This document shows, piece after piece, positions 12,001 through 15,000 of a stretch of 22,963 bases of DNA (within the stretch, counting starts at the first letter, position 1; each line of letters starts with the position of its first letter). Position numbers: made by a program. This DNA comes from a virus (lineage: Duplodnaviria > Heunggongvirae > Uroviricota > Caudoviricetes): positions 1-22,963 of IMG/VR virus record IMGVR_UViG_2802429249_000003, one strand, 5' to 3'.

Positions 12001-15000
12001 ACAAAGAGGAATATGGAAAGAAGGGGTACATGTATTAAAAGTCGACGGAGTTAAAGAACGTTGGGTCGACTTAATGGAGATTACAAAATGGGCAAGAAAG
12101 AACAAGGATCACTATCTCTCCCTAGAGGAGTAACTATTCGCCAGCATAAAACTGGTAGCACTCTGGTTATCACTTTTACATATAAAGGGGTTCTGTGTCG
12201 GGAGCCCCTCTCCAGAATGGAAGTAAACGCGCGCGGTGTGAAGTACGCCGAGCGTCTGCTGGGAGAAATAAAAAATCAGATTATCGATGGTACCTTCGAA
12301 TATGCAAAATACTTCCCCAACTCCCAAAAGCTGGAGTTGTTCGGGGGAGTGAAAAAAAACAAAAATATAAAATCTTACCTGGATGAATACCTGATTATCT
12401 GCCAGAACCGTAACCTGTCACCATCGACAATTAGAGGTTATGAAAAATGCCTGTCGGCGCTGTCAGCATTGCATAAATTTCATGTATCAGAACTGACACC
12501 TGCAGTACTAAAAAACTGGATCGCCAGCAGAAAAACAAAACTGAAAACTATCCGCAATAATCTTTCATTCCTGCGCAGCGCCATAGATGAAGCGGTGACC
12601 GATGGTTTGTTAACAATAAATCCTGTCACGCTAGTCAGCGCCAGCCGGTATCACGTATTGGACAACACACCAGGCAGTGATGATTACGAGGTCGATCCTT
12701 TTACACCAGCGGAGACGGCAGCAATCTATAACGCCTGTCATTACCCGGAATGGCGAAATCTGTTTCGCTTTGCCTTTAATACAGGACTGCGCAGCTCAGA
12801 ATTGTGCGCGTTGCGCTGGATGGATATAGACTTTATCGGCAACACCGCGCATGTTCAGACTGCAAGCGTAGTCGGGGTAATCAAAAGCACCAAAACAAAA
12901 GCCGGCACCCGCAAAGTGCAACTGAACAGCGAAGCGCTGGCGGCTCTTCAGGCACAAAAGCCCTACACGGCGCTAAAGAGCGACTTCATATTCAGCGATC
13001 CGAAAACTCGCGCTCCTTGGGCAAACGCAGATGCGATCCGAAAAAAAGCCTGGGTACCAACCCTTAAAAAAGCTGGTGTACGCTATCGCAATCCGTACCA
13101 GACACGCCACACGTTCGCCACTCGGCACATTAGCCAGGGCGTTAACCTGTTCTGGCTTGCTGGTCAGATGGGGCATAAAGGACCGGAAATGCTGTTCAGA
13201 CATTACGGCTCTTACCTTGCAGAATACGATGGAAAAACGGCGATTTCTGCAACCCCGTAACGGCAAAATATTTCAAAATGTTGTACAGAATCAGGACGTT
13301 ACCGGGACAACAATATGTACGTAAAATGCACATAATTCATTGTTTGAAAAAATAAATCGTTCATATTCAATAAATTGGATTAATCACGATCACGGGTTCA
13401 ACTCCCGCCAGCTCCACCAAAATTCTCCATCGGTGATTACCAGAGTCATCCGATGAAGTCCTAAGAGCCCGCACGGCACAAGCCCTGCGGGCTTTTTTGT
13501 GCCCTCAGTTTGTCCCGCGAAGTCTGAAGAGAACTAATTAAATCCGAACCTTTTAGGCCCATTGATAGGCCCAACGAAAAGCTCTATTGTTTTCGTTGGG
13601 CCTAAACGCATGGAGACTCCCCATGGCAAGAAAAACCAAGCCGTTAACCGATACGGAAATCAAAGCCGCCAAACCTAAAGATGCCGATTACCAGCTGTAT
13701 GATGGTGACGGGCTTACTCTGCTAATCAAGTCCAGCGGTAGTAAGCTCTGGCAATTCCGTTACTATAGGCCTCTAACCAAGCAGAGAACCAAACAGAGCT
13801 TCGGTGCCTACCCTATCGTCTCGCTTTCTGATGCACGTAAACTCAGAGCCGAATCTAAAGTTTTATTGGCGAAAGACATTGATCCGCAGGAACATCAGAA
13901 AGAACAGGTCAGAAATTCACAAGAGGCCAAAACCAACACTTTCTTGTTAGTCGCCGAACGTTGGTGGAATGTGAAGAAAGCCAGCGTAACAGAGGACTAT
14001 GCCGACGATATCTGGCGCTCGCTTGAGAGAGATGTTTTCCCAGCAATCGGTGATATCAGTGTCACTGAGATTAAGGCTCATACTCTGGTTAAAGCAGTTC
14101 AGCCTGTTCAGGCCAGAGGGGCATTAGAGACTGTTCGCCGCCTTTGTCAGCGTATTAACGAAGTCATGATTTATGCGCAGAACACGGGCCTGATTGATGC
14201 GGTTCCCAGCGTAAACATCGGGAAAGCATTTGAGAAACCGCAGAAGAAAAATATGCCGAGTATCCGCCCGGATCAACTTCCACAGTTAATGCAAACAATG
14301 CGTACAGCAAGTATCAGTGTGTCCACGCGGTGTCTGTTCATGTGGCAGCTTCTCACCATCACCCGTCCTGCCGAAGCTGCTGAGGCTAGATGGGATGAGA
14401 TCGATTTTGTTGCTAGCGAATGGAAAATTCCAGCAGCCCGAATGAAGATGAACCGGGACCATACGGTTCCACTATCCAATGAGGCTCTCTCTATTCTGGA
14501 AATGATGAAGTCACTCAGTGGTGGCCGAGAATTTATCTTTCCCAGTCGCATTAAGCCTACCCAGCCGATGAACAGCCAGACAGTGAATGCAGCCCTTAAG
14601 CGTGCAGGCTTAGGAGGCGTTCTCGTATCACACGGTTTACGTTCTATCGCCAGTACGGCACTCAATGAGGAAGGATTTCCTCCCGATGTCATTGAAGCAG
14701 CACTGGCTCATGTAGACAAAAATGAGGTACGTCGCGCTTACAACCGAAGCGATTACCTTGAGCAACGTCGTCCTATGATGCAGTGGTGGGCCGATTTTGT
14801 AAGCAAGGCCGACAGCGGGAGCAATGTTGAAAACGGGAAAAGAGAGTTAAAACTTGTAGTCTGAGCCTCTAGCTAGATTGGTTTTATTGGTGAGTTTTTC
14901 CAGGTAAAAGTGCAATGACTCAAACCTGCTCTGCAGGTTTCGAGGGTAGATCGCAATCGAACCTGACAGTCTGGTTTGTGGCAGGAGCAGACGTTGCTAC

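Follow-up and report, generated by a model that had tools for sequence, protein, structure and literature searches.

The perfect inverted repeat that precedes the integrase gene intA is best read, with a probability of about 0.84, as two of three int-proximal arm-type (P') sites of IntA and not as a single element. It is real, and very probably an ordinary part of the integration machinery of the island and not an RNA switch. An earlier note on this DNA had suggested an arm-type or regulator binding site, a suggestion supported by the presence of three motif copies, a layout like that of the P4 attP, the recurrence of the motif on the far arm in Escherichia coli K-12, and a lineage-specific motif within a fixed layout. 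Throughout, the window denotes the whole stretch of DNA that was analyzed, which has a length of 22,963 bp.

Inverted Repeat and Motif Copies at the ssrA-intA Junction

The repeat comprises 15 bp of perfect complementarity (TAGGCCCAACGAAAA, 13566-13580, and TTTTCGTTGGGCCTA, 13590-13604) around a spacer of 9 nt (GCTCTATTG). It had previously been described as a perfect 14-bp repeat with a 9-nt gap that ends 20 bp before the intA ATG; perfection and spacer are as described, but the length is 15 bp and the right arm stops 18 nt before the ATG (13623). The right arm had also been said to abut the ribosome-binding region, and it does come near it, although the GGAG of the Shine-Dalgarno sequence (13612-13615) lies 7 nt past the arm and is uncovered. 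The placement of the repeat between the att core and the intA start stands as reported (table 1). It is the sole perfect inverted repeat of at least 12 bp with a loop of 3-50 nt in the whole window, and a 15-bp inverted repeat was recovered in 2 of 300 dinucleotide shuffles (mean 0.007).

One motif of about 12 bp, TAGGCCCAACGA, is present in three copies, two of which are the arms. The third copy, TTTAGGCCCA at 13552-13561, had been overlooked; it is direct with respect to the left arm at 12-bp spacing and inverted with respect to the right arm. The direct copies, P'1 from 13554 and P'2 from 13566, are offset by exactly 12 bp, and the inverted copy (P'3) occupies 13593-13604, so that P'2 and P'3 stand face to face and form the palindrome. 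Against an expectation of 0.64, the window contains the octamer TAGGCCCA three times, at 13554, 13566, and 13597 (minus strand). The motif is unlike the core, is repeated between the core and int, and its copies in the window are confined to this spot.

As judged from sequence, the upstream prophage at its right end and the CP4-57-like island at its left end share the att core region. Since the window takes in just 28 nt of ssrA, neither ARAGORN nor Rfam reports a complete tmRNA in it. The ssrA terminator is kept between the core and the integrase sites and is the same as in K-12 save for one loop base. No match to the strict IHF consensus WATCAANNNNTTR was found between the core and intA.

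Table 1. Map of the ssrA-intA junction in window coordinates
Feature	Position	Strand	Basis or remark
ssrA 3' end, last 28 nt, ...GGGTTCAACTCCCGCCAGCTCCACCA	13393..13420	+	Alignment with K-12 and HUSEC2011 ssrA-intA junctions
ssrA intrinsic terminator, GC-rich stem (13463-13496) and T-run	13463..13503	+	Inverted repeat; terminator-like match 13480-13494, then TTTTGTGCCC
Three RTCY boxes: GTCC 13512-13515, GTCT 13522-13525, ATCC 13542-13545	13512..13545	+	Outside the inverted repeat
P'1, first direct arm-type site (predicted), TAGGCCCATTGA; overlaps the -35 hexamer	13554..13565	+	Direct repeat, 12-bp spacing
-35 hexamer TTGATA, intA promoter	13562..13567	+	Promoter scan
Left repeat arm, P'2 (predicted) TAGGCCCAACGA (13566-13577) plus AAA; fills the promoter spacer	13566..13580	+	
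-10 hexamer TATTGT, within the 9-nt loop	13585..13590	+	Promoter scan
Right repeat arm, TTT plus P'3 (predicted; 13593-13604, reverse complement of TAGGCCCAACGA); covers the transcription start	13590..13604	-	
intA transcription start, transferred from E. coli K-12	13597..13597	+	SMRT-Cappable-seq, PMC6131387
Shine-Dalgarno sequence GGAGA of intA	13612..13616	+	Read from sequence; 6 nt before ATG
intA, P4-family tyrosine integrase, 413 aa	13623..14864	+	Pfam

The motif copies are interleaved with a sigma-70 promoter (TTGATA-17-TATTGT, 13562-13590) that has 9 of 12 consensus matches in the promoter scan. Its -10 hexamer, TATTGT, is conserved in CP4-57-type and HUSEC2011-type loci, and the latter have TTGTTA at the -35 position. 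In Supplementary Data 2 of a SMRT-Cappable-seq study (PMC6131387), b2622 is listed with its own transcription start site at 2756132. We took that table to be 0-based (it places thrL at 147), which gives a 1-based position of 2756133. The 1-based position of thrL is presumably 148. By gapless alignment, 2756133 corresponds to position 601 of locus L004 and to position 13597 of the window; this start was measured in K-12 and not in the present strain, K-12 being 97.7% identical here with one mismatch in the right arm. The mapped K-12 start is located 7 nt downstream of the -10 hexamer and within the right arm (P'3), and the three motif copies span about -43 to +8 of the intA promoter. With the -10 hexamer in the loop and the start inside the right arm, the intA mRNA does not contain the left arm. 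A longer intA open reading frame with a TTG start, from 13587, was rejected since its start precedes the mapped transcription start.

Layout and Motif in Related Integrase Loci

Among 80 related loci with an Int identity ranging from 98% to 48%, 66 carry an exact 7-mer in two direct copies and one downstream inverted copy just upstream of int, with a 12-bp distance between the direct copies in 64 of these 66. The same layout was found 0 and 1 times in control regions, and 0.05 occurrences were expected from shuffles. The motif itself varies by lineage and is of at least eight kinds (TAGGCCCA, TAGGCACC, TAGGTACC, TAGTTATA, TGGTATTCCAA, TGTATTCCAA, and others), and most elements with differing motifs are still located at the same ssrA target. 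In HUSEC2011-type loci all three copies have changed in concert, including P'1, which lies outside the stem. A record of Pasteurella phage Pmp4, which does not include the other arm, has five TTGGTATTA copies beside int, and inspection by eye of Vibrio phage P3 revealed no obvious repeat.

The pairing of the copies is more variable than their layout: the spacer between paired copies ranges from 9 to more than 40 nt in the relatives, and the pairing partner varies. The 15-bp complementarity of the present locus compares with 8-13 bp in most relatives, where it is no longer than the motif itself. The 3 bp (AAA/TTT) by which the palindrome extends beyond the 12-bp motif here are not required by the arm-site model.

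The motif recurs at the other end of the element, as far as this can be followed in the K-12 homologue alone, the attR of the present island being beyond the window end at position 22963. At the attR end of K-12 CP4-57 there is a far-arm pair, TAGGACCAACAA and TGGGACCAAAAT, with copies 12 bp apart and 50 bp before a degenerate attR core, and 5 of 6 matches to TRGGMCCAW in 26.5 kb fall in the two att arms. In the HUSEC2011 and NCTC9113 islands, which have the motif TAGGCACC, an IS3 insertion between yfjP' and ypjA' has removed the right end, and no attR is present.

The protein encoded by intA has an N-terminal Arm-DNA-bind_3 domain (PF13356, aa 8-95, E = 2e-23, 82.7 bits versus a cut-off of 27) in addition to the Pfam domains Phage_int_M and Phage_integrase, and is about 36% identical to P4 Int. 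Between HUSEC2011-type and CP4-57-type integrases the arm domain is the most diverged part, with 73% identity versus 93% and 87% for the other two parts. By analogy and from this covariation, we infer that IntA is the protein that binds the motif copies.

A second, separate set of elements lies just upstream of P'1. The RTCY boxes of the present locus follow the helical phase, with distances of 10 and 20 bp, and chains of two to four such boxes with 9-11 bp spacing closely precede the first arm site in 52 of 64 nonidentical related loci versus about 5% of shuffles. These boxes are conserved across lineages whose arm motif differs. We regard them as candidate binding boxes for an excisionase (recombination directionality factor, RDF) of the AlpA/Vis type, to which AlpA may bind.

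Comparison with Characterized Systems and Proposed Function

The closest correspondence is with the attP of phage P4 (X05947; record of Pierson and Kahn 1987), in which TGGGGGCA is present in two direct copies at 288 and 300, 12 bp apart, and inverted at 330-337 at the start of int, a distance equivalent to that in the present locus, whereas the other arm has two direct copies at 80 and 92, again 12 bp apart and 52 bp before the 20-bp core. Both elements have five copies (counting the far pair of K-12 CP4-57), namely a far pair that precedes the core by about 50 bp, together with two direct copies and one inverted copy near int, and in both the int promoter (Pint, as annotated in P4) overlaps the int-proximal copies. 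The integrases belong to the same family with an Arm-DNA-bind_3 N-terminus, and both target the 3' end of a small RNA gene, tRNA-Leu for P4 and ssrA here. The motifs differ, TGGGGGCA in P4 versus TAGGCCCA here, and the complementarity of P'2 and P'3 is only about 9 bp in P4 versus 15 bp. In addition, P4 has its annotated -10 overlapping P'1 and its inverted copy overlapping the start codon of int, whereas in the present locus P'2 and P'3 flank the -10 and +1 falls within the inverted copy. Relative to the repeats, the annotated P4 promoter is shifted upstream by one to two sites, and the register of promoter and sites is not identical across the family.

P4 Int and the RDF Vis are reported to repress Pint (cited in PMC7286903 and PMC2951348), and the P4-like IntI of PAI I536 is reported to repress its own promoter (PMC7286903). 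Overlap of attL and promoter has been taken to predict negative autoregulation for tRNA-adjacent integrases, which was confirmed for several E. coli integrases, including IntF of CP4-6, IntC, and IntL (PMC2951348). In KplE1 (IntS/TorI) the integrase promoter is overlapped at its -35 and -10 by P' and RDF sites and is repressed by both the integrase and the RDF; KplE1 has an integrase of another subfamily and another site arrangement, and intA of CP4-57 is not among the promoters tested in that study (PMC2951348). ICEMlSymR7A, which we liken to the present locus by description, has five arm-type motifs, P1-P5, all of which are needed for integration, and attP-bound IntS shuts off intS transcription (PMC11963761). 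Its RDF, RdfS, binds attL just upstream of the first int-proximal site (P3) and stimulates int transcription (PMC11963761), a behavior paralleled by AlpA raising intA expression and by the RTCY boxes upstream of P'1 here. ICEMlSymR7A differs in being a conjugative symbiosis island of another host clade with the motif TGKTGGTATC.

On these grounds we propose that the N-terminal domain of IntA would bind the arm sites and its catalytic domain the core within the 3' end of ssrA, and that the three near sites and the two far attR copies would bridge arm and core to form an intasome for integration and excision, as in P4-family elements. Because the sites interleave with the promoter (the -35, the -10 in the loop, and +1 in P'3), bound IntA should exclude RNA polymerase, which would keep integrase synthesis low and self-limited; by analogy with the systems above, IntA binding probably represses the intA promoter. 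AlpA excisionase probably acts via the separate phased RTCY boxes just upstream. The resulting map, in which the left end of a CP4-57-type island is made up of the core, the ssrA terminator, candidate excisionase boxes, three predicted arm sites interleaved with the promoter, and intA, indicates how the island probably keeps integrase low yet stays able to excise, and its excision matters in that it alters ssrA. It leaves the current understanding unchanged and extends the picture from P4, KplE1, and ICEMlSym to one more element. The set of 80 loci pairs arm domains with site motifs, data that could help to predict which arm sites a P4-family integrase recognizes and to locate the far ends of uncharacterized islands.

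Alternative Readings of the Repeat

The three copies might instead be operators of another regulator of the island, such as AlpA, an excisionase that is described as an activator of intA, and not sites of the integrase. AlpA is annotated and cited as an intA regulator and is encoded on the same element, so that covariation alone cannot separate AlpA from Int. We nevertheless consider this improbable, since the far arm carries the motif as well, some 50 bp from the core, in a P4-like pattern of arm sites, and the two Int types have diverged mainly in the arm-binding domain. RDF sites have been described as direct repeats that are typically spaced by one helical turn (PMC7498355). Measured against such sites (direct repeats of 10-11 bp on one arm), the motif copies are 12 bp apart with one copy inverted and occur on both arms, and the phased RTCY boxes just upstream, with their spacing of 9-11 bp, fit the definition better. 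The same division of labor between integrase and RDF has been shown experimentally for ICEMlSymR7A (PMC11963761). Moreover, no alpA is visible in the 9 kb of the island within the window, although the gene may lie beyond its end.

The ssrA promoter is extremely strong. A second alternative is that the repeat forms a roadblock or attenuator hairpin against transcripts from ssrA or from the upstream prophage, thereby insulating intA. The precedent is ICEKp1, which like the present island has a P4-type integrase beside a small RNA gene, in that case tRNA-Asn, and drives int from the tRNA promoter (PMC13023037). Predicted stem-loops between the RNA gene and int lower int expression there, and deletion of one of them, SL3, in the int 5' flank roughly doubled or tripled expression (a reported 194.2% enhancement; PMC13023037). 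A hairpin at the present locus would be very stable. However, in ICEKp1 the tRNA terminator is displaced and int has no active promoter of its own when integrated, whereas here the complete ssrA terminator lies between the core and the sites, and intA has its own promoter with a start inside the repeat. The available part of the SMRT-Cappable-seq data lists smpB-ssrA and ssrA units and no ssrA-intA unit (PMC6131387). The stem is followed by AAACGCATGG, without a U-tract, and does not appear in the terminator scan, in agreement with the earlier statement that it is not a classical terminator. Together with the finding that in most relatives the complementarity does not extend beyond the protein-site motif, this makes insulation as the function of the repeat quite unlikely. 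With IntA arm sites as the primary function, there is a small chance that the palindrome doubles as an RNA or DNA hairpin that blocks residual read-through into intA from the ssrA promoter or the upstream prophage int, because its long perfect complementarity (15 bp, conserved base for base) could be selected as a hairpin. If so, integrase expression would depend on the integrated, excised, or tandem-array state, as reported in 2026 for ICEKp1.

The earlier note had also raised the possibility of an RNA stem-loop that sequesters the 5' UTR and controls translation of the integrase; on this reading, the ribosome-binding region of intA would be hidden. If transcribed, 13566-13604 would indeed fold at -24 kcal/mol (z = -6.7), and P4 Vis is reported to be an RNA-binding protein that affects Int expression post-transcriptionally (PMC2951348). 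This reading is contradicted by the mapped K-12 start in the right arm and the -10 in the loop, which leave the left arm out of the intA mRNA, and the structure of the actual 5' UTR is unremarkable (z = 0.19 versus shuffles). The stem ends at 13604, short of the Shine-Dalgarno sequence, which it does not include. P'1 changes in step with the arms despite lying outside the stem, and the variable spacer and shifting partner in the relatives are unlike a conserved RNA helix. No Rfam family matches at the repeat; with Rfam 15 at the gathering score, matches in the window are limited to sok, C4, and isrK, all far upstream of it. We therefore regard control of translation by such a stem-loop as highly unlikely. 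A separate small CAUGG/CCAUG hairpin around the start codon was rejected, since shuffled sequences fold just as well and HUSEC2011-type loci lack it.

Finally, a chance palindrome or a generic repetitive element without function, for which only the general frequency of short intergenic palindromes speaks, has next to no probability and, on sequence comparison, is refuted by base-for-base conservation of the repeat across many enterobacterial genera, by its rarity in the shuffles, and by a layout shared with 66 of 80 relatives versus 0-1 in controls.

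The inverted repeat before intA

The inverted repeat between the 3' end of ssrA (the att core) and the intA start codon exists and is perfect, as the earlier note described; however, its size was reported too small and a third copy of its motif was missed. TAGGCCCAACGAAAA pairs without mismatch with TTTTCGTTGGGCCTA over 15 bp across a 9-nt spacer. It is the only perfect inverted repeat of at least 12 bp with a loop of 3–50 nt in the entire window. The third copy, TTTAGGCCCA, lies exactly 12 bp upstream of the left arm in direct orientation, and with the right arm it forms an inverted pair. 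The octamer TAGGCCCA has three copies in the window (0.64 expected), all at this locus. The feature exists, is not random, and is conserved. We refer to the candidate arm-type sites as P'1 and P'2 (direct) and P'3 (inverted); the left arm of the repeat is P'2 followed by AAA, and the right arm is TTT followed by P'3.

Features of the window around the repeat and in the two flanking mobile elements
Feature	Position	Strand	Remark
Lambdoid prophage	1-13420		in ssrA, preceding the CP4-57-like island
sok	405-578	-	prophage; Rfam match
C4 antisense RNA	5206-5293	-	prophage; Rfam match
isrK	5318-5394	-	prophage; Rfam match
Prophage integrase	12061-13260		Arm-DNA-bind_2 domain
ssrA, last 28 nt	13393-13420		sole ssrA part present; separates the two elements
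ssrA terminator	13463-13496 + T-run		between ssrA 3' end and intA
RTCY boxes GTCC, GTCT, ATCC	13512, 13522, 13542		within 13512-13545
Third motif copy (at P'1)	13552-13561		TTTAGGCCCA
P'1	13554-13565		direct
Predicted -35	13562-13567		TTGATA
P'2	13566-13577		direct
Left arm of repeat	13566-13580		TAGGCCCAACGAAAA
Predicted -10	13585-13590		TATTGT
Right arm of repeat	13590-13604		TTTTCGTTGGGCCTA
P'3	13593-13604		inverted
intA	13623-14864		first gene of the CP4-57-type island
932-aa ORF	15134-17932	+	directly after intA
Four ORFs	18036-20947		no Pfam match
yfjJ-like gene	21370-22050	-
DUF3987 (YfjI-like) gene	22345-22866	-

Probable arm-type sites in the window, with P4, CP4-57, and related loci

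By sequence comparison and analogy, the two arms of the repeat are very probably arm-type sites, P'2 and P'3, for an integrase of the P4 family, and they flank the -10 of the integrase promoter. The repeat would then be a further example of a known integrase arm-site arrangement. This possibility, raised in the earlier note, is supported by the P4 layout, by copies in the far arm of K-12 CP4-57, by a conserved layout with a varying motif, and by a joint switch of the motif accompanied by divergence of the arm domain.

IntA, a tyrosine integrase of the P4 family, carries an arm-DNA-binding domain at its N-terminus (PF13356, E=2e-23) and is 36% identical to P4 Int. In the attP of P4, the family reference element (record X05947, core at 156-175), TGGGGGCA occurs int-proximally twice in direct orientation at 288 and 300 (12 bp apart) and once in inverted orientation at 330-337, immediately beside the int start; as in the window, a direct pair at 12 bp and one inverted copy thus adjoin the integrase gene. 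The annotated -35 and -10 of Pint overlap these int-proximal copies, and a second direct pair at 80 and 92 (12 bp apart) lies 52 bp before the core. Far-arm sites were read in the K-12 CP4-57 homologue (L004), the window's own attR lying beyond the window end. There, TAGGACCAACAA and TGGGACCAAAAT, 12 bp apart, are located 50 bp before an attR core that is degenerate (TTCAGACTCCGCCAGCCCACCAA, L004 positions ~22431-22453), and five of the six matches to TRGGMCCAW in 26.5 kb fall within the two att arms. Alignment of the five copies yields a site of ~12 bp, T(A/G)GG(C/A)CCAAC(G/A)A, which P'2 and P'3 match in full, so that 12 of the 15 palindromic bp are accounted for. The 3-bp A/T extension is imperfect in K-12 (one mismatch, right arm) and in the related locus L043, complementarity is shorter in other lineages, and the extension is probably not itself selected.

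We searched 80 related loci, all from other species and with Int identities of 98–48%, for an exact 7-mer present in two direct copies and a downstream inverted copy no more than 140 nt from the int start. This layout was found in 66 loci, with a direct-copy spacing of exactly 12 bp in 64 of them; the counts in the two control regions were 0 and 1, and 0.05 was expected from shuffles. The layout is therefore kept across other junctions but the motif sequence is not: motifs include TAGGCCCA, TAGGCACC, TAGGTACC, TAGTTATA, TAGTAGTAC, GGGTACA, TGGTATTCCAA, and TGTATTCCAA. Most of these elements lie at ssrA and a few at tRNA genes, always about 165–205 bp from the 3' end of the RNA gene. Because the motif differs among relatives with mostly the same ssrA target, its variation is uncoupled from the core target, which is the behavior expected of a separate DNA-binding domain. 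In HUSEC2011-type relatives, all three copies have changed jointly from TAGGCCCA to TAGGCACC, including P'1, which lies outside the stem; between IntA and the Int of these relatives, divergence is greatest in the arm domain (73% identity, vs. 93% for the central and 87% for the catalytic domain). Compared with sequences L003 and L001, the integrase is a mosaic: relative to K-12 IntA, identity is 99% in the arm domain but only 90% in the catalytic domain.

Single loci show further variation. At the equivalent place, Pasteurella phage Pmp4 carries TTGGTATTA in three direct and two inverted copies, in the Klebsiella "phage" Kp4865-2 (L007) exactly one of the direct 12-bp units is missing, and L028 carries an identical CG-to-CA change in both arms. 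Cedecea neteri (L011), with an Int 96% identical, has the P'1-P'3 region deleted and looks like a decaying island.

The intA promoter and competing readings

The sole sigma-70-like match in 13250-13750 has a 17-bp spacer; its predicted -35 falls at the P'1/P'2 junction, P'2 occupies the spacer, and the -10 forms the "loop" of the palindrome. In the SMRT-Cappable-seq data for K-12 (PMC6131387, Supplementary Data 2), intA (b2622) forms a separate unit that starts at 2756132, with ssrA starting at 2755585 and thrL at 147, and the units given in the passage concerned are smpB-ssrA and ssrA, with no ssrA-intA. In 1-based numbering the intA start is 2756133, corresponding by gapless alignment to position 601 of L004 and 13597 of the window. 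The table is 0-based, since it gives thrL as 147 where the start is 148; its ssrA start agrees with the 7-nt leader of the ssrA precursor. The transferred start lies 7 nt past the -10, at the first base of the inverted site, and together with the promoter match it places the three sites at roughly -43 to +8.

The best-supported model has two parts, intasome assembly and autoregulation. The N-terminal domains of IntA would bind P'1-P'3 while the catalytic domains bind the core, and this occupancy, with that of the two far-arm sites, would lead to intasome assembly; the same occupancy would block RNA polymerase at the intA promoter. We infer this block by analogy: P4 Int and Vis repress Pint, and the P4-like IntI of PAI I536 represses its own promoter (PMC7286903). 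Overlap of attL and the integrase promoter predicts autorepression, which was confirmed in several E. coli integrases including P4-like IntF (PMC2951348). In ICEMlSymR7A, integration needs all five arm-type motifs, the RDF, which binds immediately before the first int-proximal site, stimulates transcription of int, and attP-bound integrase shuts int transcription off (PMC11963761).

AlpA is described as the activator of intA, and CP4-57 excises when AlpA is overproduced. Three RTCY boxes in helical phase, about 10 bp apart, just upstream of P'1 are likely excisionase (AlpA/Vis-type) binding boxes and a plausible target of AlpA. Of 64 non-identical relatives among L010-L089, 52 have chains of 2–4 boxes in the approximately 60 nt before the first arm site, vs. 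about 5% of shuffles, and the box sequence is kept even across differing arm motifs. That AlpA, instead of Int, binds the three motif copies is disfavored by these separate boxes, by the motif's presence on both arms, by the 12-bp spacing with an inverted copy, and by divergence of the Int arm domain. Stem-loops in the int 5' flank of ICEKp1 attenuate read-through (PMC13023037); that the repeat has this as a secondary function is unlikely because the ssrA terminator is retained here and intA has its own promoter. The RNA stem-loop controlling integrase translation that had been proposed finds no support: with the start taken from K-12, the left arm is absent from transcripts of the intA promoter, which therefore cannot form the -24 kcal/mol stem, and folding of the true 5' UTR does not exceed that of shuffles (z = 0.19). 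The stem would also end 7 nt before the SD, leaving the latter outside, and no Rfam family matches at the repeat. Nor is the stem a terminator, as previously recognized, since it has no U-tract and the terminator scan did not list it. A chance origin is excluded by the occurrence of a 15-bp inverted repeat in only 2 of 300 dinucleotide-preserving shuffles and by the frequency of the layout among relatives relative to controls.

Mobile elements flanking the repeat

Two mobile elements in ssrA, a lambdoid prophage followed by a CP4-57-type island, make up the window as a tandem array; ARAGORN and Rfam detected no whole tmRNA in the window. The closest genome has a Stx2f prophage at this position, and the ssrA-to-intA stretch is 97.7% identical to that of E. 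coli K-12. The island gene order (18036-22963) departs from K-12 CP4-57, and alpA was not seen in the visible 9 kb. The 932-aa ORF, which holds the yfjH/alpA position of K-12, encodes an AAA_22 ATPase domain, a C-terminal SEC-C motif, and a weakly Cap4-nuclease-like N-terminus (25.0 bits, just below the 26.2-bit cut-off), and looks like defense-type cargo. The HUSEC2011-type ssrA islands of E. coli HUSEC2011 and NCTC9113 (L005 and L090) share an IS3 insertion at the island end, where truncated copies of a yfjP-like GTPase gene and of ypjA are joined; both islands have lost the right attachment site and are therefore presumably fixed in place.
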